21,686 nt of DNA from Thermofilaceae archaeon (GCA_038727095.1 JAVYWK010000028.1:1-21686), one strand, 5' to 3'. Positions 3,201-20,114 are shown, counted from the stretch's first letter. The notes: generated by a model not told the origin, from the sequence alone. A program made the numbers and translations.

Positions 3201-3596
3201 TTAAAGAGGGGGAAGGGATGGAGCAAGCTCGCTTCGGCTTAGCGCTTCCTCGGTTAGCTTAACCAGCTTCTCTATTGCCGGCTTCCTAGCCTTAACTCCC
3301 TCGATTTCGATCTTCGCTTCATGAAACCCCCAAACGTGCAAGTAATTCGCAGCGTCCCATCCGATCCTTACATCAGCGCCGAGCTTATCGGTTAAAGCTT
3401 CAACGGCCCTTTCAAGCAGAATGACAGTCCACCTCCCCTTCTCCTCGGCAATCTCAGCTTCGCGAAGCCCAAAGTCCTTTGCGGGGAGCTTTATGCACTC
3501 CTCTGCAGCCTTATAGAGCTTCTCAGAGGCTTGAACAACGTCGCCTCTATCGATATAAACCTCTGATTCGCTAAGTAAGCTTCTAACAACTGACAT
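3201..3596 (-). CDS. PaREP1-family (HEPN-like) protein
   Basis: GDVVQASEKLYKAAEECIK...GRWTV.LL..AV...WDAA.YLHVWGFHEAK signature. Start placed at ATG 3596 after GGAGGG. Confidence 0.88.
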   Translation of the reverse strand: MSVVRSLLSESEVYIDRGDVVQASEKLYKAAEECIKLPAKDFGLREAEIAEEKGRWTVILLERAVEALTDKLGADVRIGWDAANYLHVWGFHEAKIEIEGVKARKPAIEKLVKLTEEALSRSELAPSLPPL

Positions 3597-3845
3597 GCCC
3601 TCCATTGAACCGCACCTTGAGATGAATCTCATAAGCCATCCTTAAGTCCTCTTAAGACTCAACTCAGAGCGGATAAGCAGATCGGCTGAAGAGCGCAAGC
3701 GTGGTTCAGCACGATCATCCCTCCGACAGAAACAGGGCTTCACAGCCATGGCTTAGGGAAGTAGAGGAGGCCGGGCTACCGCGTTCGCGTCTTCACTCGT
3801 AGTTAATTAAGCTTTGATCGATCTGAGGAAAACGTGATAATCGCG

Positions 3846-3926
3846 CTAGACCATCGGCAATCCCGTGGGTTTAAGCCGCCCTGTAACCGGGTCCACTTGA
3901 TACCCGAGCGCTTTGAGGGATGCGGC
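3846..3926 (-). pseudogene. 3' remnant of clan AA aspartic protease
   Basis: Translates AASLKALGYQVDPVTGRLKPTGLPMV*, matching the C-termini of the intact paralogs and remnant 14517..14615. Confidence 0.8.
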
Positions 3927-3929
3927 TAT

Positions 3930-4155
3930 TACTCATCACGTACTCCAGGATCCTAGTTGCTGCCCGGAGACGCTTCTCATCAGTATCCCTCGTATACGCT
4001 TCACTGAGCCCCGCGCCTGTAGCGATCGAATACCTTGAAACCCCCTGTCTTTAAACTCGGTATAGGAGGCTGTTTTCTCCTCTTCAGCCTCTCCAGCCAG
4101 AGCTGGCAGAATCCAGAGGCCTTACCATGATGATGTTTTGGACAGCTTTCACCAA
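3930..4155 (-). pseudogene. Possible degraded HEPN-domain gene
   Basis: Fragments VKAVQ.., LERLK.., KVFDRY.., YTRDTDEKRLRAATRILEYVMS across several frames resemble HEPN C-termini. Weak match. Confidence 0.3.
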
Positions 4156-4194
4156 TCTCACCCTCTACGCTCCGGGAGTCTCAAGTTCCTTTTC

Positions 4195-4234
4195 AAACCC
4201 TGTCTCACTTTCAGAGCGGAGAAAGGGGGGTCAA
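4195..4234 (+). mobile_element. Possible IS200/IS605-family right-end relic
   Basis: aaaccctgtctcactttcagagcggagaaaggggggtcaa resembles, from recall, archaeal IS605 right ends (ctcgcccttcagggcggggaggaggtca) and ends in TCAA. Confidence 0.3.
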
Positions 4235-4260
4235 ACTGCGGACGTGCACTCACGTTCTTC

Positions 4261-4291
4261 TGTATACAAAAAATTTTAAAACTTGTATACG
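4261..4291 (+). promoter_or_regulatory. vapBC promoter with inverted-repeat operator
   Basis: GTATACAA (4262-4269) and TTGTATAC (4283-4290) form a perfect 8-bp inverted repeat around the TATA-like TTTTAAAA, ~25-40 nt before the GTG at 4314. Confidence 0.65.
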
Positions 4292-4313
4292 TTTAACTGT
4301 TGGTTGTTTCGCT

Positions 4314-4541
4314 GTGAGTGCGGTGCTGAGCATACGTATACCGAGGGAGCTGAAGGAGAAGATGAGGGAGCTGAGAGACGTGGACTGGAGAGGAGAGGTA
4401 GTATCGTTTCTAATTGAGAGGGTGAAGTACTACGAAAGGTTAAGGATAATCAGGGAAGTGCGCAAGATCATCGATGAGGTACCTGCAGCTGAGCCAGGGA
4501 CGGCTTCGAGGTACGTGAGGGAGGATCGTGATAGTAATTGA
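4314..4541 (+). CDS. vapB: VapB-like antitoxin (ribbon-helix-helix)
   Basis: MSAVLSIRIPRELKEKM..VDW..E RHH-type N-terminus and VREDRD C-terminus. Overlaps the PIN gene. Confidence 0.85.
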   Translation: MSAVLSIRIPRELKEKMRELRDVDWRGEVVSFLIERVKYYERLRIIREVRKIIDEVPAAEPGTASRYVREDRDSN

Positions 4542-4935
4542 TGCTTCAGCGCTAGCCAAGTACCTGCTCCGAGAACCCGGCTACGATTCGGTGGAGAAGC
4601 ACCTGCTCGAGGGCACCTACTCAGTAGACCATGTAGTGAAGGAGGTAGCCAACGCTCTGTGGAAGCACGCAGTAATTCACGGGAAAATACCCCCTGAGAG
4701 AGCGAGGGAACTGTACAGGGCGCTCACAATGCTGATCGAGGGAGGACTCGTGGTGATAGAGCCGCAGGATAAGTACATGCGGGAGGCTTTCGAGATGGCC
4801 CTAACCTGCGGGATCACGGTGTACGACGCGCTCTACATCGCACAGGCAAAAGCGAGAGGCGCGAAGCTCCTCACATCCGATAAGGTTCAGCTAGCCGCTG
4901 CGGAAAAGCTGGGAGTAGAAGCCCTGCGCGCGTAA
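4528..4935 (+). CDS. vapC: VapC PIN-domain ribonuclease toxin
   Basis: IVIDASALAK...KEVANALWK...ITVYDALYIAQA...LLTSD, with intact PIN acidic residues. Confidence 0.92.
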   Translation: MIVIDASALAKYLLREPGYDSVEKHLLEGTYSVDHVVKEVANALWKHAVIHGKIPPERARELYRALTMLIEGGLVVIEPQDKYMREAFEMALTCGITVYDALYIAQAKARGAKLLTSDKVQLAAAEKLGVEALRA

Positions 4936-5037
4936 CCCCGGTTGAGGAATACGCGCCCGGAAAGGACCCCATCCCTGTCGCGTAGGAGGACCTCGCGGAG
5001 CCGCAGCCCAACAATCTCTATAGTGACTGTGGAACTC

Positions 5038-5361
5038 CTATGCTATCCTGACCAGCTCAGCCCTCTTCCTGTAGATTTCGAAAACGTCTCTCGTGACCAC
5101 GTGTATCTCGAAGGGGTCCGTGATGCCGTTCTTCCAGAGCTCCGCGATCACCTGAGCCGGCGCCGCGTCCGTAACCACCAGAACGTCTATGTCGCTAGAC
5201 AGCAGGCACTCCCCCTCGGCGACGCTGCCGAAAAGGTACGCTTCACCTCTTTCATCCAACCTCTTTACAGTGTCCGCTATCGTTTTCAGGTACTTGTCCA
5301 GGTCGCTGAAAATCCTCGCCCGGCGCTTCGCCTCACTAACCAGCAACTTTTCCGATAGCAT
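5038..5361 (-). CDS. Minimal nucleotidyltransferase (MNT)
   Basis: YLFGSVAEG...SDIDVLVV (GS-x-DxD motif), FEIHVV; 107 aa; overlaps the HEPN gene. Confidence 0.9.
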   Translation of the reverse strand: MLSEKLLVSEAKRRARIFSDLDKYLKTIADTVKRLDERGEAYLFGSVAEGECLLSSDIDVLVVTDAAPAQVIAELWKNGITDPFEIHVVTRDVFEIYRKRAELVRIA

Positions 5362-5728
5362 CCACCAGCTCCCTCACAACCCTCTCGAGCCGCGCAACCT
5401 CGTCGAAGGTGTACGCTCTGGCCACGCACCTAGAGGTTATGTACGCGTCCTCGAGCGCCCCAATCTCTACGCTGAACTTAGATAGCAGGGTCTTGATCTC
5501 CTCGCACTCTTTCACTTCGTACAGGAGCTCCATAAGCCTCCTCACGCTGTGCGTTCTCGGGTACTCTAAGCCCAGCTTCAGCAGCACAGCTTTGAGGTAC
5601 AGCTGCAAAGACTGCTCAAAGCTGAAGGCGGCCAAGTCGAAGAAGCCCCTCTCGATCTGCATGCGCGCGGTTTCGTAGAAGCGCCTCGACCTCTCGAGAA
5701 GACACTCGTACTCCTCACGCTTCGTCAT
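5336..5728 (-). CDS. HEPN-domain protein paired with MNT
   Basis: G.FDLAAFSFEQSLQLYLKA.L...YPRTHS..L...LEDAYITSR. Start at ATG 5728, ~30 nt from TATA-like CTTTATC (5761-5767, minus strand). Confidence 0.9.
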   Translation of the reverse strand: MTKREEYECLLERSRRFYETARMQIERGFFDLAAFSFEQSLQLYLKAVLLKLGLEYPRTHSVRRLMELLYEVKECEEIKTLLSKFSVEIGALEDAYITSRCVARAYTFDEVARLERVVRELVDAIGKVAG

Positions 5729-6241
5729 ACACCGCCAGTAATCCCCACGAGGATGATGCAGATAAAGCTTAGCCATCTGAAACAACGTTAAGCCCGCAAC
5801 CCCCAGCTCCCCGAAGCTCGCGGACAGCCAGCTCTAAGAAGTACGAGACGCCGTAGAGAAACCCAGGGATACTCAGCGTGATCTGCGAGCAGATCAGATG
5901 GGAAGCAAAGAAGGGCAGCGTCTCAAAAGAGGGGGAGAGAGCCCTGAAGCCCAGCAAGAGGAAACCGTCAGCCGCTTCACCCCGCAGTACTCCGGAAAAG
6001 CGCTTTCACTAGTGAGGCCTTACCCCGCAGGGTCCCAGCGCGGGCTCACTAGCTTGATCCCCACCCAAGTGCGCCGCTACCCATGTATAAACTTCATGTT
6101 ACTCGCCCCGGCTCTGAACTTACTTGAGCGAGGGGCAAGCCCGCATGCGCAAACCGATGCGGAGTGTTCAGCTCTGAAAGCCCTGGGCGAAAGAGAAGAG
6201 TTCACTCTGCTATCTTCAGGCGCGTTTCCCAAAGCTAGCCC

Positions 6242-6607
6242 CTAATAGAAGTATGCTAAGCCGGCCGGCCTGGTAGGCTCAAGCTTACCGCTCACAGGAT
6301 CCACTCTCAACCCCAGGTCCTCCAAAGTCCTCACCCCGAGAACACTTCTAGCCCCTTTAAAGCAGGCGACCAGCGTGGCGGCGGATCGATCCCCAACTTT
6401 CACCACGACCGCGTACACGCTCGCCTCGACCACTCTGCCGTCGCCGAGCTCCGAGCGAACCTTGTACGGTATAGGCCACGCACCCACCTTCTCGGCGATT
6501 TCCTCGTCCAGCACCGTGTAGCTCGCCCCCGTATCCACGAGCACGCCCCTCAAAGGTACCTCTCCCTTAGCACCCCTCACCACGACGTCGACGTAAACAT
6601 GCCCCAT
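6242..6607 (-). CDS. Single-domain clan AA (retropepsin-like) aspartic protease 1
   Basis: MGHVYV..LVDTGASYT..VLGVRTLEDLGLRVDPVSGKL. Confidence 0.88.
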   Translation of the reverse strand: MGHVYVDVVVRGAKGEVPLRGVLVDTGASYTVLDEEIAEKVGAWPIPYKVRSELGDGRVVEASVYAVVVKVGDRSAATLVACFKGARSVLGVRTLEDLGLRVDPVSGKLEPTRPAGLAYFY

Positions 6608-6910: not shown

Positions 6911-7459
6911 TCACTGCTTCAGCAGCGCCCTCTTCAGGTCGGCCACATCCCTCTGCACTTCAACGAGCAGCTTACTCATCTCCAGCATCGTCTTCTGCAT
7001 CTCCACAACAGCCTTCTGCAAGTCGCCTAACACCTGGTAAACACCATCAATCCTCCCACTCAACCGCTCATCCAGCTCATCAATCCTCTTGTTCAAACGC
7101 TCATCGAGCATGTCGATCCTTCTATTCAAACGCTCATCCATCTCAGTGATCCTGGCGTTGAACGAATCAGCCAGCGCGTCGATCCGCTTATTCGTTTCAT
7201 CAATCCTCCTGTTCAACCGCTCGTCCAGCTCGGAGATTCGAGTGTTGAGCGAGTCGGCCAACGCGTCGATCCGCTTATTCGTCTCGTCGATCCGCCTGTT
7301 TGTCTCATCAATCCGCCTCGATAAGTCCCTCACGACGGCTATGGTGAGTACGGCCAAGTCCTCCGCCTTCAACCTCTCACCCTTCTCCATCTTCCTCACG
7401 ATGATCTCCAGGGATTTGTCGAGCGCCAATGACAGCAGCTGCTCAGCCACCCCAACCAC
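6911..7459 (-). CDS. PaREP15-like coiled-coil protein, copy 2
   Basis: Paralog of 2622..3152 with 7- and 11-residue repeats. TATA-like AAAACTTTATC at ~7482-7492 (minus strand) favours a GTG start at 7459 or 7450. Confidence 0.8.
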   Translation of the reverse strand: MVGVAEQLLSLALDKSLEIIVRKMEKGERLKAEDLAVLTIAVVRDLSRRIDETNRRIDETNKRIDALADSLNTRISELDERLNRRIDETNKRIDALADSFNARITEMDERLNRRIDMLDERLNKRIDELDERLSGRIDGVYQVLGDLQKAVVEMQKTMLEMSKLLVEVQRDVADLKRALLKQ

Positions 7460-7775
7460 ACCAATCCAGCCACCGCCAAAAGATAAAGTTTTACTAAACC
7501 ACAAAGCCTTAACACTGCAACCCCGCTTAAACTCCTCACCCTATCCACTTCAACAATACTGCGATACATGTTCGTCGGAAGCTCCCTCGATTTCGGCTAC
7601 CGGTAGAGCATCTCCACTGCTTGCTGCTCGAGCAACCCGGGTCCGCAGCGAGGAGTGCGCCCAGGGCTGCACCACGGCGAGCGCCTAGCTCTCCCCCTCC
7701 ACTGGCCACGAAACCGATCCCCTGCCCCCGCCCCTCTCCCTCAGCGATCCCCAATCCCGCATAGCTGCTCGCAAC

Positions 7776-8156
7776 CTACTTCAAAAGGCTCTCCACGATC
7801 CTCAGGTACCCCTCGGCTTTCCTAAGCTCCTCCTCGCGGTCCTCCGGGTCGAGAGCTCCCTCGTGGAAGCCCAGCACGTGCAGCTTTTAGGCTCTAGCGT
7901 AGAACTTGTCGTCGAGCTCCAGCTCAGCGAGCTCCGCTCTCCCAGCCACGAGCCTCCGCAGCATGGTTTTCCTCTCGACGTAACTGGAGGGCTTACCCAC
8001 CCCACTCCTCACGAGGAGCAGGTCGGTGGCCAGGAGCACGGCGAGCCAGGCCTTCTCGCAGGCATCCCTGAGCAGCAGGGGATCCCCGTTCTCCTTGAAC
8101 CTCTCGAACCCCTCGCGAGCGTGAGCTAAAGCCCTCCACGCCTCCTCGATGGACAT
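7776..8156 (-). pseudogene. PaREP1/HEPN-like gene with in-frame stop
   Basis: MSIEEAW..LRDACEKAWLAV..ATD..ERK.ML..FYARA, then TAA at 7887-7889, then KLHVLGFHEGALD..LLK* in the same frame. Confidence 0.85.
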
Positions 8157-8666
8157 GCGAGCCGAAAACACCGGGGCAGCTGCCCTAAAAACCCCTTGGG
8201 GGCGAGGCCCCAGGAACCCTCTTAGGCTGGAGAAAACGGAGCGTCGAGCAGTCCCCGAAGCGCACCCCGATGGCAAGAGCCCGCCCATCGCGAGACCTCT
8301 TCAAACCTCGAAGAGTCCGTCAAGCTAGAGACCGTCACGCCAGCAAGGCCCGCTCGCAACGACCGAGCGGCAAACCACCCGCTAAAAGACCCCCCATTCG
8401 CTGCGCAGATCCAACGATTCGCAACAGGGTCTTAGCCCAGTTCAGGTATCCCGTCTCGGTAGCCCCCTTCTTCACGAAGCTGGCTGCCGTACCGCCCTCT
8501 TTATTGTCGCTAGCTCCAGCGCGCTCACGCTCGTAGCTCCGAACCTCCGACGCTGCATTGACGCTAGGGGCTCCACCACCCGCGCAGCGCTCAATCAAGT
8601 TTTCACAGCTTCGCGTCTACGGTTCTAGTACGCATCGTCGTACCAACGCGCGCCGCGTTTCAAACG

Positions 8667-9188: not shown

Positions 9189-9433
9189 GAGTAGCCACTA
9201 GTTTAGCACTCGTTTATGTCATATAACGTTTTCCGTTTTGGCCATCTCTCAGCGTAGGATTGCAGTCAACCCTGCTGCCGCATCTCAATGCACTCCTCGA
9301 CACCCCCCTGCAGCTTTTCAAGCACTCTAACGCCTATCGAGCACGTAGATGCCCTCGCTAGTTCTAAACGGCCCGCACGATCTCAACCTTTAGCGGCCAC
9401 CAGCTCACGGCTCAGCCGCAGCCGCGTCGTCCC

Positions 9434-9785
9434 AGACGTCCAGAGCGGAAACGGTAGTCTTCTGGTAAGCCCACCGCTGCTGGGTCACCCCTCTAGCCCA
9501 TCTGCTCCAAGGCTACCGCGCCTATGAGTAGAATCACGCCCCTCAGTCTAACGATAACGGGGGGCTGCGCTACCCCACCCTGCCTCTATTATAGCTTTGG
9601 CTGCAAGCCTAACTTCTCCAGCACCCTCGGCTGCTTCAGCCGAACGTTCGCTCAACGCTCGGCAACGCGAGTTCCGCAACCACATCTTCAGGCAGAGCTG
9701 GGAAAACCGCACCCGTATCAACGAGAGCCCTCTCCTTCCCGGCCTCTTCTGATCCACGCCCCCTAAATATTCGACGTAGTCGATG
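9434..9785 (-). pseudogene. Degenerate clan AA aspartic protease (paralog of 14626..15042)
   Basis: Contains ALVDTGAVFPALPEDVVAELALPS. Aligns along 14641-15005 with several indels and lacks the first ~14 codons. Confidence 0.85.
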
Positions 9786-9900
9786 CCCCCGGCCTCCTCA
9801 ATAGCCGTTAAGACTAGCACTCGCGCGCATCTAAGATAATGTTCAAGCTATTTGCGTTTCAAGCGTCTCAGTTAAACGCCAGACCCCTCTTCGGCTCGAT

Positions 9901-9950
9901 GCTTCCTCGGTTAGCCCGGCCAGTTTCTCTACAGCAGGCTTCCTAGCTTC
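9901..9950 (-). pseudogene. 3' remnant of PaREP1 gene
   Basis: gcttcctcggttagcccggccagtttctctacagcaggcttcctagc resembles 3243-3289 and 17692-17738 (ARKPA.EKL..L.EEA). Confidence 0.6.
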
Positions 9951-9985
9951 AATTCTAAAGCCGCTGAAACACCAGCCCCGTTCGC

Positions 9986-10393
9986 TTAGGAAATACTCCC
10001 CTCAGGATCTGCGTTCATGATCAACTGTCTTTCCAACAACTCTACAAGTCTTTTTACTATGGGCATTCTCCTCTCGACATCCTCCCTATCTAGCTTTGCC
10101 TCATGAAAACCCCATACGTGTAGGTGGCTTGCGGCATCCCATCCGAGCTGGACCTCCATGCCGAGCTTATCTGTCAGCTTCCTAACGGCTTTCTCTAGCA
10201 GCGTGACCGTCCACCTTCCCCTCTCTTCAGCAGCTTTAACTTCCTCGAGCTCGAAGATCTCAGATAGGGCTTTCACGCACTCCTCAGCAGCCTTGTAGAG
10301 CTTCTCAGACGATTGAACAGCATCCCCCTTCATTAGAAACTCCTCGGCTTCAGCTAGTAGAAGCTTGATGAGCTCCAACCTTTTCGAAGCCAT
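9986..10393 (-). CDS. PaREP1-family (HEPN-like) protein
   Basis: GDAVQSSEKLYKAAEECVKAL...GRWTVTLLEKAV...WDAASHLHVWGFHEAK. Confidence 0.9.
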   Translation of the reverse strand: MASKRLELIKLLLAEAEEFLMKGDAVQSSEKLYKAAEECVKALSEIFELEEVKAAEERGRWTVTLLEKAVRKLTDKLGMEVQLGWDAASHLHVWGFHEAKLDREDVERRMPIVKRLVELLERQLIMNADPEGSIS

Positions 10394-10538
10394 TGCATTC
10401 TCCCCTTTGCGGCCGTATCGCTCCCTCTATAGCCTTTCTACGCTCCCTCATAGTGGTAATTCGATAGCGAGTTGGTGAGCAGGGAGAGGCCGCCGTGTAG
10501 AGTTTCCCTATCCACGAAAACCTTGCTTTCAAGCCGTT

Positions 10539-10961
10539 TTAAAGCGGGTCGCTCTTCGTCGACCTTAGCATCCCGCTTACGTCGTTTAAGTACGCTCTAA
10601 CCCTCTCCAGCTCATACCTTATATCCTCCACATCTATGTTTCCCTCGTAGAACACCATTTCGTGTAGATGCCTTTCCCTCGCCCCATACCTATCCCTAAG
10701 CATCAGCTTCCCAATCTCGGGGAACCTTGCTTCCAGTTCCCTAAGCATCCTCCTACGCTCCCAGTTGCTGGATGGAAGCTTTCCTACCAGCCTCAGGATT
10801 AGAGCATTCGTCGCCTGAACTACGGCATTCCAAGCCTTTTCAGCCGAATCCCTAATCTCGTACGCGTTATTTCCCCTAACCCCCTCCTCAAACTCCTTTA
10901 AGGCCTCCTCATAGAATCTAAAGGCATCTTCAAGGTAGATGGCCACCCTGCAGGCCATCAT
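10539..10961 (-). CDS. PaREP1/HEPN-like protein with Rx4H motif
   Basis: IRDSAEKAWNAVVQATNAL...ERRRML...ARERHLHEMVFYEG. Start uncertain (10970/10961/10946). Confidence 0.85.
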   Translation of the reverse strand: MMACRVAIYLEDAFRFYEEALKEFEEGVRGNNAYEIRDSAEKAWNAVVQATNALILRLVGKLPSSNWERRRMLRELEARFPEIGKLMLRDRYGARERHLHEMVFYEGNIDVEDIRYELERVRAYLNDVSGMLRSTKSDPL

Positions 10962-10996
10962 ACCATTCACCCACTACTTACATTCTTTTAAAGGCC

Positions 10997-11546
10997 TTAA
11001 TGCAACACTGGATGTTCCTTGGCTAACCTAAGCCTCTATTCGTATTCTAAGGGGTCTTCAAGGTCCACTTCCAATTTGAATGGTACGATGCTTGGCGGTA
11101 CGATCCAGCTGTAGCCCCAGTCCTCTTTAACCCTCCTTATCCCTAAGCTTCGAAGCTTCTCGTTGACCTTATCCTTCAACCTCTTCACCAAGCCCTCCTT
11201 ATCGTAGATTATCTTCCCTCTATGAGGGCATTGAGGATCAGGGGGCTCGATACGTTCCTAACGAGGTCTTGAACGGACACTACGAGGACCGTCGTATCCC
11301 TGTTTACAGCCTCTCTAAAGGCCCTCAAGCCCTCGTAGGCTTTAAAGTAGGTCTTCACTGGATCACCGTCAAAATAATCTTTCAAGGGAAGAGTATGTCG
11401 TAGTCGCTCTCATCCCTGTAATCCCCCCTAGCCCTGAAGCCAAAGAGCATCAACCCCAGCAAGCCGTCTCCGAACATCTTCAGAGAGAGGCTTGTGAGGA
11501 GCCCTTCGACATCTACCTCAACGCCTCCCCATACCCGCAACTTCAA
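10997..11546 (-). pseudogene. MNT nucleotidyltransferase pseudogene, possibly once fused to a HEPN domain
   Basis: LMLFGFRARGDYRDESDYDIL / frameshift / ..PLILNALIE / frameshift / GKIIYDKEG..GIRRVKEDWGYSW..EYE*RLRLAKEH (TAG at 11036-11038). The GS motif reads GF. Confidence 0.85.
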
Positions 11547-11590
11547 CCACGACGGTAAGGAGCGTATAGAACATGTATAAAAAGTTCGAT

Positions 11591-12010
11591 ATGGGTTGTG
11601 TTGGGTACGCCGGAGTTGGGTTTACGATAATCACTCTACACTCGTATGATCCTAGCTACGCCCACAGGTTTATGCGCGACTCTTGAGGGGCAGGAGGCGT
11701 CGCTAAAGCTTACGAGGCTGGTGGAGACGCGGCTGAGCGTGTGCGTAGGCTCAACGGGGCGTTAAAGCCCGCAGCTGAAGCCGAGTCCAGTGGAGTTAAG
11801 CCTGGCCGGCGAGGCTAACGCTTCGATCAATTCTACGGTCAAGGATGCTCCTGCGATTAGGGATGAAGGCTCGAGGGCTAGAAAAGCCACGTACATTCTC
11901 TACGAGTCTGCTTTAGCAGTTGTAACAGTCGCAGATGCGCTCACGTACTCCTACGCCAAGGCTCTTCCGGAGGACCTGGGTCTAGCTCAGGGCCGACCAT
12001 ATGGTTAAGC
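11591..12010 (+). pseudogene. Degraded small membrane protein
   Basis: Fragments AYEAGGDA..VRRLNGAL.., LAGEANASINSTV..APAIRDEG and a hydrophobic C-terminus across frames resemble, from recall, small membrane proteins of archaeal glycosylation loci. Confidence 0.35.
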
Positions 12011-12312
12011 TGAGCTCCGAGAGGTACCGTCACTCGACATACGTTACTAAAATCTCAAGATTTTCATGAGGGGCCCGCAGATTTAAGAAAATGGAATTTA
12101 GCTTCATCTCTCGTAGGCGCCACTACGCTTACAAGAATAGGTTTTCTGAACACTTAAGGCTTGAACTGAATGCTTTGATGCTCTCTACAGCGGTCGACCA
12201 TCTCATGAGCATCAAAAACCTGAGATCACTATCAGTCCAGCGATCTCGAACAGCCTCTTTACTCGCGACCCATCAACCGCAGATACTATTTTCGTGCTTT
12301 ACCGCTCGATTA

Positions 12313-13170
12313 CTAGTACGTTCTTCTCTTGATCCTCTGGACCAGCTGATGCACAGTTCTTTTTCTCATCGCAAGTCTTAGTATGTTTATTGTCGTTGCT
12401 CTGAAATTCGAATCCTCCATGAATTTCCTCGCCAGGATTTCCATCGACTGTGCCGGTTTGAGTTTTATCGGTGTTTCCACCCTACCCTGCTCTATTTGCT
12501 CGTTGAGTTTCAGGACCGTCTTTACCGCCTCCTCTGCTCTGAGCTCTCTCGCTAGGTTTAACGCTTTACCGTTAAGCCATCTCTTCGTCACGTAGTAGTC
12601 GCTGAGGAGGTACATGTGCTCCTTGTAGATGGCGTGCGTGGCCGCGGCGACGGCTTCGGCCTCCCGGGTCAACGCCTTTGCCTCTGAACCATTCACTTCG
12701 ATCGGCTCGGTCTCCCCCAGCAGGCGCTCGCCGTCAAGGTATACGATCCACGCGAATGAGGGGTGCGTGTACAAGTCCACTATGGTCCCGCCCCTAACCA
12801 TCGTCACCGTGTAGGGCTCCAAAACCTCGATTCTGAAGCCCCTATCGGCTAACGTCCTTACGGCTTTCGGGAGATGAGCACGACGTATCAGCACATCTAT
12901 GTCGACTGAGACGTGCTCTACGGGCTTCCTAAACTTGAAAAGCGCGTAGTCTAAGCCGCTTAGAGCCCTAGATACCTCCGCAACCCCACTCATGTAACGC
13001 CTGTAACGGTTCTCCTCCCTCACCCTTAGAGGGCCTTCGTAACCCACCCTCCTTAGGAAGCCTAGCAGAAGCTTGTTGAGCTCGGCCAGCTCAGCCAACT
13101 CCTCGATACTACCGCCTACGATACTGCCCGAATCTATGCTCCTCAAGAGCTTCAAGGTTTTCGTAGGCAT
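12313..13170 (-). CDS. Uncharacterised nucleotidyltransferase (NTP_transf_5-like, Pol-beta fold)
   Basis: YALFK..KP..HVSVDIDVLI (DxD) and IVDLYT third Asp; 285 aa; overlaps the upstream kinase gene. Confidence 0.8.
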   Translation of the reverse strand: MPTKTLKLLRSIDSGSIVGGSIEELAELAELNKLLLGFLRRVGYEGPLRVREENRYRRYMSGVAEVSRALSGLDYALFKFRKPVEHVSVDIDVLIRRAHLPKAVRTLADRGFRIEVLEPYTVTMVRGGTIVDLYTHPSFAWIVYLDGERLLGETEPIEVNGSEAKALTREAEAVAAATHAIYKEHMYLLSDYYVTKRWLNGKALNLARELRAEEAVKTVLKLNEQIEQGRVETPIKLKPAQSMEILARKFMEDSNFRATTINILRLAMRKRTVHQLVQRIKRRTY

Positions 13171-13787
13171 TTCAGCAGCTCCCCCATAGCCTCCTTTGGC
13201 GTTTTATCGGTTGTATCTATAGTGTAGCTCGCGTAGTACTTAGCTAGAACGTTATAGCATGCCCACTCCTTAAGCAGGAAGATGTGGGGTGTGCCGTGCG
13301 CACGTTTACGCAACACTTCGAAGGCGGCCGTAACGTACACCGCCCTATCCATAGCGGATAACCTGGCGAGGAACCTGCCGGTAAGGCTTGTTAGGAACTC
13401 GGGGTAATCCAGCGTCACGATGATCCAGACTATGAAGTCCAGGACACCGCGATCCCCGATCACCGGGTGGAGCTTGGAGAGGAGCCTCCTCAAGAGGTAG
13501 TGCGGTAGGAGGGAGAAGAACTCTACCACGATCCAAACGGACCTCAGCCTATTCGGCACGGCAACTCCGTAGTAGGGGTTGCTACCCCCCTTAAAGGCGG
13601 CAAACCGCGAGAGAAACCTAGCGAGGAGGGAGGCGAAAAGGTGGGAACCCCTAAACCATGAAATGTGAGCGTAAACGCCGCGCGAAAGCAGGTAGCTTCT
13701 GAGGTACTTGACCAACGTAGTCTTGCCGGAGCCGTCTGGACCCGAAAGGCAGACCGTAAACCGGTGGGCATCCTCCATAGCAATCAT
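13152..13787 (-). CDS. Thymidylate-kinase-like P-loop kinase
   Basis: CLSGPDGSGKTT Walker A, VIGDRGVLD (DR motif) and IDTT near the C-terminus. Start at ATG 13787 or 13778. Confidence 0.82.
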   Translation of the reverse strand: MIAMEDAHRFTVCLSGPDGSGKTTLVKYLRSYLLSRGVYAHISWFRGSHLFASLLARFLSRFAAFKGGSNPYYGVAVPNRLRSVWIVVEFFSLLPHYLLRRLLSKLHPVIGDRGVLDFIVWIIVTLDYPEFLTSLTGRFLARLSAMDRAVYVTAAFEVLRKRAHGTPHIFLLKEWACYNVLAKYYASYTIDTTDKTPKEAMGELLKCLRKP

Positions 13788-13926
13788 CACTCCCGCAGCC
13801 ACCTGATGCCCCTCCTTACCGCAGCATGGCTCACGCAATCTCCAGGCCCTGCATACCCGTTCCATCCCATCAAACCTCTATCGCTCGCGCAGATCCTAGC
13901 CACGTTACTTCCCCTCGCGCAGGGCA

Positions 13927-14317
13927 TCAACCTATCAGCGATTCGATACCCTCTATTAGATTCCGAGCCTTTTCCATCTCCGCCCTCAATTGCCCTATGC
14001 CTATGATCCCTTCATAAAACGTTACCCCCGAAGGACCTTATGCCCAGCCACGCATCCAAGATTCCCAACTCTTCAACTCGCCTATCCTTTCCTTCGATCT
14101 CCCTGAGCATCTTCCCTCCTCTCAAAGCGGCTTAAGGGGATCCTCTCCATGTACTTACGCACCAATGCGTTCACCGCCTGTACAACCGCGTTCCAAACCT
14201 TTTCGGCGGAATCCCTCACGGCTGGCACATCCGCCCTAGCTGAGCACTGCTAAATTCTCTGCGAACTCTCGCAGAAGTCTTCAGCCATTTCAAAAGGGTC
14301 TCAGCATCCAGCTCCAT
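13927..14317 (-). pseudogene. PaREP1/HEPN-like pseudogene (paralog of 10539..10961)
   Basis: Across frameshifts: MELDAE..; VRDSAEKVWNAVVQAVNALV..FERR; MLREIE..ELGILD; FYEGII..EMEKARNLIEGIESLIG*. Confidence 0.82.
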
Positions 14318-14516
14318 ACAAGCGGCTCCAACGCCTCCCACGGTGACTTTGGTAGAGTCAATCAGATGTCTAAGAACGACTGTAGTATAATCGTAAGGAC
14401 GGCTTAGTATTTCCGTACCATCGAGCCGCCGTGCCAAGGCGCTACGCCTACAGCTATGCCGTACCGAATAGATCGTACCCCATCGATTAGCGCGCGAACG
14501 CGATGGCTCCGCTACG

Positions 14517-14615
14517 CTAGACCATCAGCAATTCCACGGGTCTAAGCCGCCCTGCAACAGGGTCCACTTGATACCCTAGCGCTTCGAGGAATGTGGCGCC
14601 TAGAACCGGTATAGG
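14517..14615 (-). pseudogene. 3' remnant of clan AA aspartic protease
   Basis: PIPVLGATFLEALGYQVDPVAGRLRPVELLMV*; begins ~10 nt after the stop of protease 2. Confidence 0.85.
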
Positions 14616-14625
14616 CCCCGGCTTC

Positions 14626-15042
14626 CTAATCGTATTTGCTTCGAACGTTCAGCATAAACGGTAGCCCTTTGATGAGCCTCCCCGTCGCTGGGTCAACCCT
14701 GTAGCCCATCTGCTCCAGGGCCCCCACGCCTATGAGCGGAGCTGTGCCCCTCGGTCTAACGATGATGGGCGATTCAGCTACCCTATCCTCTATTCTTACA
14801 ATGGCGTTCGCTGCAAGCCTGACCTTCCCCACGCCTTCAGCCGTTTCAGCCAGATGCACGCCCAAGCTCGGCAACGCGAGTTCCGCAACCACATCTTCAG
14901 GCAGAGCTGGGAAGGTTGCGCCCGTATCGACGAGAGCCTCCACCTCCACCTTCCTGACCTCTTCCAGCCTACGCTTCCCTTCCACGTATTGAACGTAATC
15001 GACAGCGTTGTAGAACGTAGCCTTCACGCAAATGTGCCCCAT
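14626..15042 (-). CDS. Single-domain clan AA aspartic protease 2
   Basis: MGHICV..ALVDTGATFPALP..PLIGVGALEQMGYRVDPATGRL, with a ~18-aa insertion before the catalytic motif. Confidence 0.88.
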   Translation of the reverse strand: MGHICVKATFYNAVDYVQYVEGKRRLEEVRKVEVEALVDTGATFPALPEDVVAELALPSLGVHLAETAEGVGKVRLAANAIVRIEDRVAESPIIVRPRGTAPLIGVGALEQMGYRVDPATGRLIKGLPFMLNVRSKYD

Positions 15043-15637: not shown

Positions 15638-15997
15638 ATGGGTTTCACGCACGTAAAGGTGAAAGTTGCTAATCCGGTAAACCCAACGAGGGTGGAGGAG
15701 GTTGAGCTGCTGGTGGATAGCGGCGCCATCTTCACCTCCATACCCGGCGAAGTCCTGAAAGGCTTGGGTTTAGGGCCCATCGACCGCGTAAGGCTCAGAG
15801 TTTACGGGGGAGCCGTTATAGAGCGGGAGATCGGGTGGGCTTTAATCGAGTACGAGGGCGTACGCAGAGTCGTACCTGTGATTTTCGGAGAAAAGGGTGA
15901 CACCCCAGTGCTTGGAGCAACAAGTTTAGAGTCTTTAGGTTTCCAAGTCGATCCAGTAACCAAAAAGCTAAAACCGGTAGAGTTTCTGATGATTTAA
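15638..15997 (+). CDS. Single-domain clan AA aspartic protease 3
   Basis: MGFTHV..LLVDSGAIFT..PVLGATSLESLGFQVDPVTKKL. Confidence 0.9.
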   Translation: MGFTHVKVKVANPVNPTRVEEVELLVDSGAIFTSIPGEVLKGLGLGPIDRVRLRVYGGAVIEREIGWALIEYEGVRRVVPVIFGEKGDTPVLGATSLESLGFQVDPVTKKLKPVEFLMI

Positions 15998-16125: not shown

Positions 16126-16255
16126 TCACAGCGCCAGCAGCGCTTCAACCTTCCCAAGCTGCTTCGTTACGGGATCAACCTCGAGCCTCAAGCCCTCTAG
16201 GGCGTCAACGCCCAGAACTTCAGCGTCCTCACTTTCCGCAAAAACGACGATCCTA
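16126..16255 (-). pseudogene. 3' remnant of clan AA aspartic protease
   Basis: IVVFAESEDAEVLGVDALEGLRLEVDPVTKQLGKVEALLAL*. Confidence 0.85.
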
Positions 16256-16259
16256 GTGG

Positions 16260-16500
16260 CTGAGAGAAGCCTCCTACAGAAATAGCGTGGTAAAAGCGAG
16301 GAGAACCCTATGAGGACCTGCAGGAGTCTAAGCTTCAAAAGTACGGCGACCCCATAGCAGGGGCTTCTACACCCCCTAAGCGGTGCGAAGCACGGGAGTG
16401 CGAGGGCTGAAGCGAACAAGTGGAAAACAGCGCGAAGACGTGCAGCTCCTGAAAAGCCCAGCAAGCTTACCCCAACCGGGGCCGTCCGGTCCAAGGAGTG
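16260..16500 (-). pseudogene. Degenerate copy of the N-terminal half of the TMP-kinase-like gene
   Basis: LGPDGPG (shifted frame) and HLFASALA..FAPLRGCRSPCYGVAV..FSSLLPRYFCRRLLS align to HLFASLLA..FAAFKGGSNPYYGVAV..FFSLLPHYLLRRLLS of 13152..13787. Confidence 0.8.
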
Positions 16501-16844
16501 ATTGTAGATGCTCGACGAGCGTTTCTCACAACAATTCACCACTTCCCCCCACAGCCATGCCCAGCACCTTCCTCCCACGCGACCCCAGCTTACACCATCC
16601 CCAGGGAGCACGCCCAGCCTAATGTAGAGCTCGCGGCGGCAACCTAGATAGGAGGGCTTCGCTGACATCGCTCTTTAGGGGCACATCCCCGTTTCGAGAG
16701 CCTTCTGAAACTCCTCAGCGCAGCTCAGCCCCTTCGGCTGTTGCGAGAGATATCGATGAAGCCTTCGGCCGAAGAACCACAGCACTGTCGATGATCGCGA
16801 ATCCCACGCTTCGATAGCTCTCCCGGACACCTGCTCTTATCGCC

Positions 16845-16934
16845 TCGAACGTTCAGCGCAAACGGTAGCCCTATGACGAGCCCCCATCGCTGGGTCAACC
16901 CTGAAGCCCGTGCTCCAGGGCCACCACGCCTATG
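16845..16934 (-). pseudogene. 3' remnant of clan AA aspartic protease (protease 2 type)
   Basis: Nucleotide similarity to 14641-14734 (tcgaacgttcagc..aaacggtagccct..cgctgggtcaaccctg..tgctccagggcc..cacgcctatg). Confidence 0.8.
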
Positions 16935-16961
16935 GTGAATCGCGCTCTTCGACAGTTCTCG

Positions 16962-17321
16962 TTAAATGAGCGGGTATGGGGCTCGTTCAAGCTCTCCCGT
17001 TAAAGGATTCACCTTAAGCTCGAAGATCTCTAGAGTTGTCACTCCGAGGACGGCTGCATCCCCCTCCTCAGCGAAGATGACTGGCACGTGCCTCCTCTCC
17101 CCCATGAGCTCGATTAGGGCCTCACCAACAGCCCTCTCAACCTCCTTCCCCTCAAAGGTCCTGTACCTTCCTCTTCGTACCGGCTTTATACCGAGCGCCT
17201 CCAGCATCCCCTTAGGAATGCTCGTGTGGAGGGCACCGCTATCCACCAAGAGCTCAACCTCCTCGAACCTAGAGGGGTCCACCGGGCTAAAGACTTTGAT
17301 TTTTACGTATGTGAAGCCCAT
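16962..17321 (-). CDS. Single-domain clan AA aspartic protease 4
   Basis: MGFTYV..LLVDSGALHT..VLGVTTLEIFELKVNPLTGEL. Start at 17321 or 17330. Confidence 0.9.
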   Translation of the reverse strand: MGFTYVKIKVFSPVDPSRFEEVELLVDSGALHTSIPKGMLEALGIKPVRRGRYRTFEGKEVERAVGEALIELMGERRHVPVIFAEEGDAAVLGVTTLEIFELKVNPLTGELERAPYPLI

Positions 17322-17375
17322 CTTCACCACCTAGATAACGCTCCAGCTCTTTACTATTACTGTCACCTTCTTAAA

Positions 17376-17530
17376 GGGGTTCAGCTCTTACGTAAGTCGA
17401 TTTCATCGCCTCACCTCTTCTTCCCCGCATCGGTCTTGGGCCTGCACCACCCTTAGGGGCGTTCGGGGCGCCCCCCAAACCCCACAGCTTGAGCAGCTCG
17501 GGGGGAGCCCCTAAGGCCCTCGACCCCTCA
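17376..17530 (-). mobile_element. Possible non-autonomous tnpB/IS605-derived relic (structured right end)
   Basis: 10-bp inverted repeat CCTTAGGGGC (17451-17460) / GCCCCTAAGG (17507-17516) enclosing C6/G6 pairing. The minus strand reads ELLKLWGLGGAPNAPKG..MRG.., recalling archaeal TnpB tails. Confidence 0.4.
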
Positions 17531-17638
17531 TCGAACACTTCCACGCACCACTACATAGGGTGCTTGTAAGCGCTTCCATCTACATCCCAACGAGCAGACA
17601 TGAAACCCGAACAGTTACGTTAGGCTCTCAGACCCAAT

Positions 17639-17914
17639 TTAGATCCCCTCACTCGTACGATGGCTTGAGAACACCCTTGAGACTTTCTGTGGCTTCCTCA
17701 GCTAGCCTAACCAGCCTCTCTACAGCTGGCTTCCTAGCTTTAACGCCCTCAATCTCGATCTTGGCTTCATGAAGGCCCCAAACATGTGGGTAGTTCGCAG
17801 CATCCATCCAATCCTCGCATCGACACTGAGCTTACACGTTAAAGCTTCGACGGCTCTCTCAAGCAAGGTGACGGCCCACCTACACCTCTCCTCAGCAACC
17901 TTAACTTCACTAAG
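17639..17914 (-). pseudogene. 5'-truncated PaREP1 pseudogene (close paralog of 3201..3596)
   Basis: LSEVKVAEERCRWAVTLLERAVEALT..IGW / frameshift / AANYPHVWGLHEAKIEIEGVKARKPAVE. Confidence 0.88.
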
Positions 17915-17965
17915 AAGTGCTTTTGGGTTTCCGCAAACCCATGTGTTTAAGCGTTACTGCGCACC

Positions 17966-18248
17966 TTACGGGATGGTGTTTACTCCCAGCTTTCTTGCTA
18001 CTTCCCTCTGTTTTTGGTCGAGGGTTAGTAGCGGTTTACCGTGTTGTAGTGCTTGCGCTACGTATAGAGCATCGTAGACCGTGATGTTGTGGTCTAATGC
18101 TACTTCGAAGGCTTTGCCTAGGTACTTTACCTCTGACTCGATCAACATGTTCTTCTCTACGTAGGATCGAAAGAATTAGTATTTTTACGACGTCGCCTAA
18201 GCTTACGTGCCTCCTTATGTTAACACTCTTCCAGAGAGCATTATAGAA
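17966..18248 (-). pseudogene. vapC: 5'-truncated vapC (PIN) pseudogene
   Basis: FYNALWK.. / frameshift ~18172 / ..KAFEVALDHNITVYDALYVAQA..LLTLD; same subtype as 4528..4935. Confidence 0.85.
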
Positions 18249-18410
18249 CTATTACAATATAAATATGACATTAAGATGCCCCATTCATATCCACTTATTT
18301 AATTACATAAAAGTTGCATTTAAACTCTACTCCACATAACTAACAATACAATGGGTTGTCGAAAAATTAACATCTTCCTCCAAACTAAAATCCTCTGAAG
18401 AGTCGGATCT

Positions 18411-18484
18411 CCGAGGAGGTGCTCAAGATGTGAGGAGCCCAGGGTCCTCGATACGCCTCTCGATGACATGAGGGAGGAAGTCAG
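18411..18484 (+). mobile_element. Possible IS605/tnpB right-end relic
   Basis: ctcaagatgtgaggagcccagggtcctcgatacgcctctcgatgacatgagggaggaagtcag: an LKM(W)GA-like TnpB tail ending in GGAGGAAGTCAG (resemblance from recall). Confidence 0.4.
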
Positions 18485-18577
18485 ATTTTCGACGCCCTAA
18501 ATTTAAATTTTCGCCCTCAGACGCAGTTGCCCTCATGTCTCGACATCAATACCATCAGCGCATTAATCTAAACGCAC

Positions 18578-18606
18578 AAAAGATATAAAGTTCTAAAGTT
18601 CTTTAG
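18578..18606 (+). promoter_or_regulatory. Promoter/operator of the second vapBC
   Basis: AAAAG-ATATAAAG TATA-like box, tandem TAAAGTTC x2 (18586-18601) and inverted repeat CTAAAG-tt-CTTTAG (18593-18606). Confidence 0.5.
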
Positions 18607-18622
18607 TAATTAGGGGACAAAG

Positions 18623-18898
18623 ATGGGTGGAATAAAAGTTTACATATCTGATGAATTGGAGCGCAAATTTAGGGAGGTTGCCATGAAGCTTTACGGCTAT
18701 GGTAAGGGTTCATTAAGTGTAGCGTGTGAGAAGGCGATAAGTATGTGGCTTTCTCAAGTTTCAGAATCCCTTGATATTGTGGAGTCGGTTGAGGACCCAG
18801 TTGAAGCCATCTATGGAATGCTCTCTCACATTAAAAAGACTGGGGTTGAATTGCAGCATGAGGCCCGAGAGATCAGAGCAAGAAAAACTCTTAGATAA
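18623..18898 (+). CDS. Putative RHH antitoxin
   Basis: IKVYISDELERKFRE..GSLS.A.E.AI..WL RHH-like pattern; stop is 1 nt before the PIN gene. Confidence 0.8.
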   Translation: MGGIKVYISDELERKFREVAMKLYGYGKGSLSVACEKAISMWLSQVSESLDIVESVEDPVEAIYGMLSHIKKTGVELQHEAREIRARKTLR

Positions 18899-18899
18899 A

Positions 18900-19310
18900 G
18901 TGGTGTTGATAGACTCAAACGTTTTCTTGGAGGTAGAGTTAGCGGAGAGCCATGCGGAGGCTTGTAAGCAGTTTCTCAGGAAGGTTAGAGATGGCTCCAT
19001 TAAGTCGGCGATCACCGACTTTCACGTAGACTCCATAGTGATTGTTATGGAGAATTATGGAAAGAGCTGGAAGGATATAGCCACGTTCCTAGCATCGCTT
19101 CTTCGCTATAGGGGGCTGATAATTTACCCGGTAAGCTTGAGTGCCCGTATAAAATGTACAACTCTCATGAGAGACTACGGCTTAGACTATGACGATGCCC
19201 TCGCAGTACAAGCCCTCAAAGATCTATCCACTTCAGTAATAATCTCTTATGACGAAGATTTCGACTCAGTTGACTGGATTAAAAGATATGTCCCTGAAGA
19301 ATTGATATGA
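18900..19310 (+). CDS. vapC: VapC PIN-domain ribonuclease toxin
   Basis: VLIDSNVFLE...GLDYDDAL...IISYDEDFD; GTG start at 18900. Confidence 0.9.
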   Translation: MVLIDSNVFLEVELAESHAEACKQFLRKVRDGSIKSAITDFHVDSIVIVMENYGKSWKDIATFLASLLRYRGLIIYPVSLSARIKCTTLMRDYGLDYDDALAVQALKDLSTSVIISYDEDFDSVDWIKRYVPEELI

Positions 19311-19751
19311 TACCTATCTCCTCCCCCATTGAAAGGAACCACGAAAGAGATAGAACTGTTACAAAATCGACCATTCCAAGTTTTCAAATATCTCTGGCAA
19401 CATACTTAAGACTCTTAAACGCGAGAAGAATTTAAGAAAAATTGTCGAAAGGATGGAGAAGTTCTTCGAAGGAAAAACTAAAGAGAAATTCATACAGACG
19501 CCCAGATATATCACCATGTAATATCTTGCTACCATTTCTTGATCTTAAAATAAAGCTAGAGAGTTCTGTACTCAGTATGATGGAAGTAGGATTACGTCTC
19601 GCGCGACTGTTTCGGGTTTCACATAGATGTTAAGGTTGATGCTAATTCGTATTGTCAGAGCTGAGCCCCATGCCCTCCAAAGTTAAAGCATCTCCCTCCC
19701 CAATCCGATCAACTTATATGTTGATGCATCTCGATAAAGTTCGGTGATCAA

Positions 19752-20114
19752 ATGGGTTACGTGAGGGTGAAGGGCTTCGTCGGATCGCCCGAGAAGGCGA
19801 GGGTTGAGGAGGTGAACTTTCTAGTTGATACGGGCGCTTACTACACAGTCTTGCCTCCGCAGCTGACAGAGAGCCTGGCCATAAGGCCGATGGCGAGGGC
19901 TGAGCTGCTGACAGCCGGCAAGAGGAAGGTGGAAGCCCACCTATCTTACGCCTACATAAGGATAGGAGAGAGGGAGGGGGTTTTGCCCGTTGCGATAGTG
20001 GAGGCCCCGGAGCCCACGCTCGGCGTAACGGCCATGGAGGGGCTCGGGATAAAAGTCGACCCGACGACGGGTAGAATAGAGTACACTAGACCCTATGGAC
20101 TCGCGATACTCTAA
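19752..20114 (+). CDS. Single-domain clan AA aspartic protease 5
   Basis: MGYVRV..FLVDTGAYYT..TLGVTAMEGLGIKVDPTTGRI. Confidence 0.9.
   Translation: MGYVRVKGFVGSPEKARVEEVNFLVDTGAYYTVLPPQLTESLAIRPMARAELLTAGKRKVEAHLSYAYIRIGEREGVLPVAIVEAPEPTLGVTAMEGLGIKVDPTTGRIEYTRPYGLAIL

Follow-up and report, generated by a model that had tools for sequence, protein, structure and literature searches.

Among the prokaryotic single-domain clan AA proteases that have been described, RloA of Pseudomonas is secreted, carries signal peptides, is encoded in an operon with RloB and RloC, and forms dimers with DTG at the interface (excerpts of PMC12239564); RimB is cytosolic, is encoded in the rimABK operon, and works with RimK (excerpts of PMC11957791 and PMC12239564); and APRc of Rickettsia is membrane anchored (excerpt of PMC4140852). 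A further group, COG5550 ("pSNCAP"; Llorens et al. 2009), consists of proteins of which little is known, as the available portion of that source puts it (PMC2642776). Here, we analyzed a stretch of 21,686 nucleotides from a Thermofilaceae archaeon (GCA_038727095.1, JAVYWK010000028.1:1-21686), hereafter the window, which encodes five intact retropepsin-like proteases (copies A to E) together with protease remnants and genes of the PaREP1, HEPN, MNT, and VapBC types. The window is the entire contig C28 (21.7 kb; GC of about 0.55 in this region) of a metagenome-assembled genome (MAG) of a hot-spring archaeon, 1.86 Mb in 52 contigs and estimated to be 92% complete. An earlier note on this DNA had proposed that the proteases, embedded in a HEPN/PIN toxin array, represent a candidate undescribed system.

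The window proteases resemble the COG5550/TIGR03698 (AF_0612 type) group in being stand-alone proteins of about 120 amino acids with a D-T/S-G motif, shared by Archaea and Bacteria, and in aligning to the profile from end to end; they differ in scoring 35 to 45 bits, under the cutoff of 57.35, and in forming multicopy arrays in toxin-antitoxin (TA) islands, which the available portion of the COG5550 literature does not mention (PMC2642776). With the retroviral retropepsins (MEROPS A2, e.g., HIV-1 protease) they share the modeled fold, the position of the active site, and the predicted symmetric homodimer, but they are only 13 to 20% identical to them, are not derived from a polyprotein, and have no retroelement genes nearby. 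Like RloA, RimB, and APRc, they are prokaryotic single-domain clan AA proteins, and the model of copy D matches the APRc structures 5c9f and 5c9b, but unlike these enzymes they have no evident signal peptide or membrane segment and no such operon. In their island residence, patchiness, rapid gain and loss, and spread across lineages they behave like type II TA and HEPN-MNT modules, yet with the crude gene calling used here they have neither a cognate partner nor a two-gene operon. Finally, copy A matches protein B of the PADLOC candidate PDC-M08 (PDLC04405) at the active site (residues 5 to 44; E = 3.7e-5), but this is one of five copies and the motif only, and the genome holds two weak partial matches to PDLC04405 and none to PDLC04404; a literature search on PDC-M08 found nothing.

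As of 2013, the antitoxin of PaREP1 had not been identified (excerpts of PMC3632139), and aspartic proteases are not mentioned in the available portions of the PaREP1 literature (PMC3710099, PMC2701414, and PMC3632139). Main texts, as distinct from supplementary tables, yielded no relevant literature joining retropepsin-like or aspartyl proteases to toxin-antitoxin systems, HEPN proteins, defense islands, or antiphage functions, so that, within this limited search, the TA-like behavior of this protease branch looks new. Our preferred reading, to which we assign a probability of roughly 0.55, is that the proteases are solo accessory genes, mobile island residents rather than parts of a fixed system, and that the window is a hypervariable accessory island that collects small, dispensable, horizontally exchanged genes.

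Results

Five intact proteases belong to a known, little-studied group

The five intact copies, with lengths counted from the conserved MG start, are as follows:

6242..6607, minus strand: protease copy A, 121 amino acids (aa), VDTGA; PF13650 at 35.4 bits, PF13975 at 32.6 bits, TIGR03698 at 35.2 bits
14626..15042, minus strand: protease copy B, 138 aa, with an N-terminal insert and a C-terminal tail
15638..15997, plus strand: protease copy C, 119 aa, VDSGA; PF13650/PF13975 at 20.6/21.0 bits; full-length TIGR03698 alignment
16962..17321, minus strand: protease copy D, 119 aa; the copy used for structure modeling
19752..20114, plus strand: protease copy E, 120 aa; Pfam and TIGR03698 profile matches

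Listing of open reading frames (ORFs) together with family scans confirmed these five genes of 119 to 138 aa at the places where the earlier note had read them, and the motifs it had picked out were kept in all five copies, namely, the MG[HFY]xxV start, VD[TS]GA (VDTGA in three and VDSGA in two), a hydrophobic-x-G motif in which G93 is invariant, and V[DN]Px[TS]xx[LI]. The gathering scores of both PF13650 and PF13975 were passed by four of the five; copy C fell below both. All five aligned over their full length to TIGR03698 at 35.2 to 45.2 bits, short of the curated cutoff, and TIGR02281 (clan_AA_DTGA) gave 14 to 24 bits or no match against a cutoff of 57.95. The Kyte-Doolittle maximum over any 19-residue stretch of the five copies was only 1.24; a signal peptide or membrane segment is therefore unlikely, and the earlier note had likewise seen no obvious signal peptide. 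Gaps of about 60 to 600 nucleotides (nt) separate the protease genes from their neighbors. Nine of the 17 protease profile matches of the genome lie on this contig, which makes up 1.2% of the assembly, so the concentration is not due to chance.

The family is large, with 7,702 clusters (50% identity) at E ≤ 0.001 and 2,736 at E ≤ 1e-10, and has members in both Bacteria and Archaea; among the best 150 cluster matches, almost all were stand-alone proteins of 115 to 170 aa. A sequence search of the Protein Data Bank (PDB) with the proteases returned chance-level matches only, and PHROGs profiles matched none of the five copies. The description of the proteases as undescribed is not borne out, since the family is already annotated (COG5550, TIGR03698-like, PF13650) and widespread; they belong to a known, little-studied COG5550/TIGR03698-like group.

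Copy D is predicted to fold and dimerize like a retropepsin

In an alignment of 55 sequences, D27, G29, and A30 were at least 90% conserved and G93 was conserved as well. An AlphaFold2 (AF2) model of copy D built on this alignment had a predicted local distance difference test (pLDDT) score of 94.8, and its best Foldseek match was HIV-1 protease (E = 7.6e-5). The matches comprised HIV-1, SIV, FIV, and foamy-virus (SFV) proteases, Rickettsia APRc, and the protease domain of DDI1, at E values of about 1e-4 and TM scores of 0.55 to 0.79, and 133 PDB chains matched the model at E ≤ 0.001. The model of copy D thus has the retropepsin beta-barrel fold.

When two chains of copy D were predicted together, the ipSAE score was 0.49 (0.46 to 0.56 in three runs), versus 0.00 for the best of three controls, with at least 75% of contacts common to the runs and a partner pLDDT of 89. 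For calibration, 20 of 30 homodimers of solved structure attained the ipSAE mark, as did 1 of 23 solved single chains. The predicted symmetric interface includes residues 29 to 32, which adjoin the catalytic Asp, as well as a conserved helix formed by residues 94 to 101. The prediction thus supports a symmetric homodimer, in keeping with the earlier note, which had stated that clan AA proteases act as dimers. Structures of retropepsin dimers have already been solved, and because of this the score may reflect likeness to those dimers rather than binding.

Two family members, P0063 (749 aa) and P0064 (301 aa), carry four and two tandem protease domains, respectively, in each of which the Asp motif (D-T-G or D-S-G) is kept. 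Such proteins may represent "dimers" that occur naturally as a single chain, or possibly read-throughs of gene calling; if real, they would mean that different domains of the family can be paired.

The array accreted from old lineages and shows turnover

Mutual identity among the five window copies was 31 to 54%, and their closest relatives outside the genus were the following:

Copy D: P0001, 96% identity
Copy C: P0016, 88% identity
Copy E: a copy in G019 (a complete related genome), 78% identity
Copy B: a copy in G019, 57% identity
Copy A: a copy in G019, 48% identity

Since mutual identity is low and most copies have closer relatives elsewhere, the array was built up by accretion from old paralogue lineages rather than by tandem duplication in recent times. 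Thermofilaceae, Nezhaarchaeales, Bathyarchaeia, and Thermosphaera are the labels of homologues that are 81 to 96% identical to copy D, and a Desulfurococcaceae MAG carries three copies at 74 to 90% identity.

A blastn comparison set the window against a contig of 133 kb from G002, a genome of the same genus, with 93 to 97% nucleotide identity. The comparison resolved three collinear blocks and two segments present in the window only, neither assigned to a strand:

9750..14655: 4.9-kb segment missing from G002, bounded by direct repeats of protease sequence (the pseudogene at 9443-9731 and copy B)
16958..19460: 2,503-bp cassette missing from G002, with an exact junction and a GC content of 0.42 to 0.45

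The 2,503-bp cassette contains copy D, a PaREP1 fragment, a PIN fragment, and a low-GC VapBC-like pair. In a DNA metagenome run, X1, one contig joins position 16957 directly to 19461, and for this reason we conclude that cassette-bearing and cassette-less forms both exist in nature. In addition, codon 11 of the G002 orthologue of copy E is a TGA stop, and the ratio of synonymous to nonsynonymous differences from the window copy is 1:6; the corresponding ratios are 2:3 for copy A, whose orthologue is 97% identical, and 3:2 for copy C. Tiny as these numbers are, their direction is compatible with intact copies under constraint and a broken copy E orthologue in which constraint is relaxed. The view that the proteases are gained and lost like toxins was thus upheld by the cassette (G002 and X1) and by the stop in the orthologue of copy E.

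Five remnants reported previously were all verified by tblastn:

3849..3926, minus strand: C-terminal protease remnant, 26 aa, 58% identical to the C terminus of copy C
9443..9731, minus strand: frameshifted copy-B-type pseudogene with an in-frame stop, 92% identical over aa 36 to 60 and 64% over aa 88 to 120
14520..14624, minus strand: C-terminal remnant of 35 aa immediately downstream of copy B, with 63% identity to copy C
16126..16668, minus strand: chimeric ORF in which part of a P-loop gene resembling 13152-13865 is fused to a C-terminal protease remnant that forms its tail (16132-16251, minus strand; 38 aa, 53% identical)
16845..16908, minus strand: copy-B-type tail remnant directly downstream of copy D, in two pieces, 75 to 78% identical, E = 0.002

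Positions 3844-3926 and 14515-14597 are 83-nt copies with 87% nucleotide identity (repeat D8), so the remnant itself was duplicated or moved. The pseudogene at 9443..9731 is a direct repeat of 14682-14945 in copy B (repeats D6 and D9). Within the chimeric ORF, the broken copy of the P-loop gene lies at 16263-16595, and a peptide nearly identical to that of its protease remnant occurs in G019 (L031, 15375-15530). The remnant at 16845..16908 is the weakest of the five and is backed by an 86% nucleotide repeat (D10). A bias of remnants toward the C terminus was suggestive in relatives; as detection favors the conserved C-terminal motif, we make no claim from it.

Proteases and toxin genes share islands, not operons

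Neighborhoods were tested in three complete relatives, G017, G018, and G019, with the expected values derived from the fraction of the genome covered. There, 11 of 21 protease loci lay within 3 kb of a PaREP1, PIN, or HEPN match, versus 1.8 expected, and 6 of 14 PaREP1 matches lay within 3 kb of a protease, versus 0.19 expected, an enrichment of about 30-fold. For comparison, PIN was near PaREP1 or HEPN in 9 of 43 cases and PaREP1 near PIN or HEPN in 7 of 14.

At the scale of operons, the picture was different. Around 62 protease ORFs in the relatives' loci, with crude gene calls, no conserved operon partner was found, the commonest neighbor family occurring only six times. Pfam tallies were then compared between two random samples, each of 150 ORFs drawn from 228, near (at most two genes away) and far (at least five genes away in the same loci), with the following counts, near and far, respectively: PaREP1, 6 and 6; MNT, 4 and 4; AAA_21, 3 and 4; PIN, 2 and 7; HEPN, 2 and 3; DUF3782/PDDEXK, 3 and outside the top 25; and MazE, outside the top 25 and 3. 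Because TA families were no commoner within two genes than at five or more genes away, the association is at the scale of the island and not of the operon. The neighborhood enrichment for which the earlier note had proposed a test therefore held within 3 kb and failed among immediate neighbors. PaREP1 was the top or joint-top Pfam family in three neighbor tallies (6/150, 6/150, and, in the multicopy arrays described below, 8/137).

Many neighbors of the proteases are metabolic genes. In G010 and G018, one protease lineage adjoins genes of the NUDIX, dihydroorotase, and dihydroorotate-dehydrogenase families, and its NUDIX neighbor is present in G019 too. The absence of a recurring operon neighbor, this housekeeping context, and the occurrence of PaREP1 and protease each without the other do not sustain the term "system" as it had been applied to the window.

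A P-loop plus NTP_transf_5 block was considered as a system together with the protease and was rejected because there are too few independent cases: the block follows a protease of the copy D type at three places in a single Desulfurococcaceae MAG, is present in the window, and is represented in G019 by NTP_transf_5 alone, near a protease remnant. Coordinates recorded outside the window include L001:2458-3886, L005:4801-5883, and G019:C1:365834-368156. As a separate observation, a fusion of coiled-coil DUF3782 with PD-(D/E)XK (PF12644 plus PF07788) recurs beside PaREP1 and protease genes:

L024:5990-6661, 8419-9177, and 9318-10037: DUF3782-PD-(D/E)XK genes
L019:7720-8535: DUF3782-PD-(D/E)XK gene
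L020:5565-6215: DUF3782-PD-(D/E)XK gene
L080:2918-3724: DUF3782-PD-(D/E)XK gene

Patchy distribution across the phylum

Of 201 high-quality genomes sampled across the phylum, 82 had a strong protease match, representing 40 of 98 genera, and copy number ranged from 0 to 12, the maximum being in the genome studied here. Protease and PaREP1 occurred together in 49 of the 201 genomes, protease only in 33, PaREP1 only in 20, and neither in 99, which gives an odds ratio for co-occurrence of 7.35, with shared ancestry as a confounder. In one family, nine of nine genomes have PaREP1 and none of the nine has the protease, and G019, with 13 protease loci, has no PaREP1 match. Since each occurs without the other, the link is not obligatory in either direction.

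Multicopy arrays recur in other families of the phylum. Eight such loci from six genomes, which were selected for carrying several protease copies, contain 137 nonprotease ORFs, among them 8 PaREP1, 7 MNT, 5 HEPN, and 2 PIN. As judged by eye, several N termini in the arrays of G183 and G079 resemble the protease, PaREP1, and MNT subtypes of the window, and the copies in the G019 array likewise resemble window subtypes by eye. The GC content of the arrays is 0.47 in G183 and 0.44 in G079, compared with about 0.55 in the window. Look-alike subtypes at different GC contents suggest that island content is common to different lineages. Within the G079 array, which belongs to another family and contains protease, PaREP1, and HEPN-MNT genes, there is a TnpB/Cas12f-like TNB-domain fragment (L081:7920-8279), a possible vehicle for island mobility.

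A probable sister family with Asn in place of the catalytic Asp

A family of about 140 aa has an invariant N-[ST]-G in place of the D-[ST]-G of the proteases, with conserved WPP, TAGGP, and GLWRF motifs and no Pfam match. Examples are as follows:

L031:2292-2714 (G019): Asn-variant gene
G000 C9:54192-54614: Asn-variant gene
G000 C20:13614-14036: Asn-variant gene
G000 C44:10186-10614: Asn-variant gene

Comparison with the protease profile by hhalign gave a probability of 82% (E = 1.1e-5), the AF2 model had a pLDDT of 95.8, and its best Foldseek matches were HIV-1 protease; on these models the family looks like a group of pseudo-retropepsins. It occurs in 23 of 41 relatives, in 0 to 18 copies. 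The family (cluster c5) was also considered as a specific partner of the protease. In protease-centered loci, six of seven members lay within two genes of a protease. Genome-wide, only one of seven copies (G017 and G019) lay within 5 kb of a protease and none was present in the window, so the partnership was rejected.

Other genes of the island

Pfam scans found the PaREP1/HEPN, MNT, VapBC, and coiled-coil neighbors that had been named for the window before:

3201..3632, minus strand: PaREP1 (HEPN-clan) gene; PF05942, E = 1.3e-30
4314..4935, plus strand: VapB-like and PIN (VapC) genes; PIN PF01850, E = 1.6e-12
5038-5361 (MNT) and 5336-5785 (HEPN), minus strand: HEPN-MNT pair; HEPN PF05168, E = 1.6e-23; MNT PF01909, E = 5.2e-10
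6911..7504, minus strand: coiled-coil gene with a 33-nt periodic repeat; low-specificity coiled-coil Pfam matches, all below cutoff; repeats D1 to D3
7812..8288, minus strand: divergent PaREP1-like gene with an internal TAA; match at 7812-8105, E = 7.7e-7, one TAA
8667..9188, minus strand: PaREP1 gene; E = 8.7e-33
9986..10393, minus strand: PaREP1 gene; E = 1.1e-34
10539..10970, minus strand: divergent PaREP1 gene; E = 5.5e-8
12313-13170 and 13152-13865, minus strand: NTP_transf_5 gene and the P-loop gene overlapping it; PF14907, E = 1.8e-9; weak AAA matches
17649-17807: PaREP1 fragment
17966-18148: PIN fragment; match at 17993-18115
18903-19277: PIN gene with a small upstream gene (low-GC VapBC-like pair, 18623-19310)

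The putative VapB antitoxin at 4314..4935 is an upstream ORF of 75 aa that overlaps the PIN gene and has no Pfam match. The NTP_transf_5 gene is the sole PF14907 match in its genome. No tRNA or Rfam match was found in the window, and no integrase or transposase was identified among the part of its ORFs scanned for those domains.

Several further observations concern the island. Two coiled-coil paralogues, at 2622-3125 and 6911-7504, are built of a 33-nt (11-residue) repeat, and a 166-nt stretch near their 5' ends (protein N termini) is 91% identical (repeats D2 and D3). An MNT-like gene at 11036-11546, its motif read by eye, is split over three small ORFs; because an additional base follows each of positions 11215 and 11386 in contigs of other hot-spring runs, the gene is either frameshifted or misassembled in the window. 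For the low-GC (0.42) VapBC-like pair (here 18375-19041), summed contig depth was several-fold above the flanks in runs X2 and X7 and very low in run X1; the pair may be shared with other organisms of the springs sampled in X2 and X7. A gene like those for dTDP-sugar epimerases lies beside the island in the window (826-1332, split into two ORFs), in G017 (L019:11136-11792), and in G019 (L031:8546-9148), which hints that the island occupies a conserved chromosomal place next to sugar-nucleotide genes.

Discussion

In the reading that we prefer, each protease would be a separate gene for a soluble protein of about 13 kDa, predicted to form a symmetric homodimer in which, on the pattern of retroviral proteases, the two subunits would share an active site and each would supply one Asp to it (D27 of D-S/T-G-A). 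The proteins are probably active cytosolic endopeptidases. Paralogue lineages would be shuffled by recombination between protease-gene repeats, by cassette insertion and deletion, and by pseudogenization, and would travel between lineages with PaREP1, HEPN-MNT, and VapBC genes while being wired to none of them in a fixed operon. The diversity of the paralogues would then mirror a diversity of substrates, the most plausible candidates being proteins from the same mobile gene pool or from invaders. A conflict role for the proteases is a plausible hypothesis.

Several points weigh against this reading. The copies at 81 to 96% identity that are labeled with other orders could partly be misbinned MAG contigs rather than transfers. 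The enrichment tests treat clustered loci as independent, and the three genomes were selected for completeness, G019 also for being copy-rich. Because longest-ORF gene calling in the relatives' loci is crude, small partner genes could be missed. An RNA run, X18, contained parts of the window at mostly 90 to 95% likeness, for which DNA carry-over is possible, and so provided no evidence of transcription. The association between PaREP1 and the protease is strong, both by proximity and by co-occurrence, and leaves room for a functional link.

That association supports the explanation that we rate highest among the alternatives, the one put forward in the earlier note, in which the proteases would form a conflict system with HEPN, PIN, and PaREP1 toxins and, as its sensors or effectors, would cleave antitoxins, viral proteins, or coiled-coil proteins. 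Here, PaREP1 would be the likeliest partner. Besides its proximity to the proteases and its place at the head of the neighbor tallies, PaREP1 genes or remnants lie 100 to 350 nt from protease genes or remnants several times in the window, G017, and G018; similar-looking protease, PaREP1, and MNT subtypes occur together in other families; and the PaREP1 literature cited above leaves a place for an antitoxin. However, G019 maintains its 13 protease loci with no PaREP1, an entire family has PaREP1 with no protease, the orientation and order of the two genes vary, TA families are not in excess at adjacent versus distant positions, and the co-occurrence statistic is confounded by ancestry. We therefore regard such a system as unlikely.

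Less probable still is that the proteases are ordinary cellular peptidases, serving for example in protein quality control, whose redundant paralogues happen to lie in a recombination hot spot. The lineage beside NUDIX and pyrimidine-synthesis genes fits this explanation, as do the metabolic or transporter neighbors of many homologues in Bacteria and other Archaea and the presence of the family in 82 of 201 genomes of the phylum. Against it stand the 119 genomes that have no strong match, the range of copy numbers, the loss or breakage of copies between sister genomes, and the strong enrichment of the proteases in islands. A more far-reaching proposal, which we rate lower again and consider a long shot, is that the proteases and the Asn-type sister family constitute an unrecognized class of archaeal conflict proteins working with the PaREP1/HEPN pool, in which the proteases might activate or neutralize PaREP1 and the Asn-type paralogues might be dominant-negative heterodimer partners. 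Finally, that the copies are mostly decaying, nonfunctional relics of a mobile element is very improbable, for although the window holds five remnants, relatives have many partial or stop-containing matches, and the G002 orthologue of copy E combines a stop with its 1:6 ratio, the intact copies keep their catalytic and structural motifs despite their divergence, copies A and C together show 5:5 synonymous to nonsynonymous differences (fewer nonsynonymous than neutral, on very small counts), and the scans of the window described above turned up no integrase, transposase, tRNA, or Rfam element.

Mobile solo accessory genes in a hypervariable island remain our preferred account of the window proteases. 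Stand-alone prokaryotic retropepsin-like proteases are widespread, as the size of the family attests, and few have a known role. One branch of them behaves like a TA or defense gene: it is patchy and multicopy, recombines, is common to different lineages, and is concentrated in PaREP1/HEPN/PIN islands. If there is no functional link, the window still shows clearly how small genes with no relation to one another come together in hypervariable islands, and it cautions that neighborhood alone is no ground for inferring a "system." If a conflict role proves true, the branch would be a new class of protease in archaeal immunity and might identify the missing partner of PaREP1.

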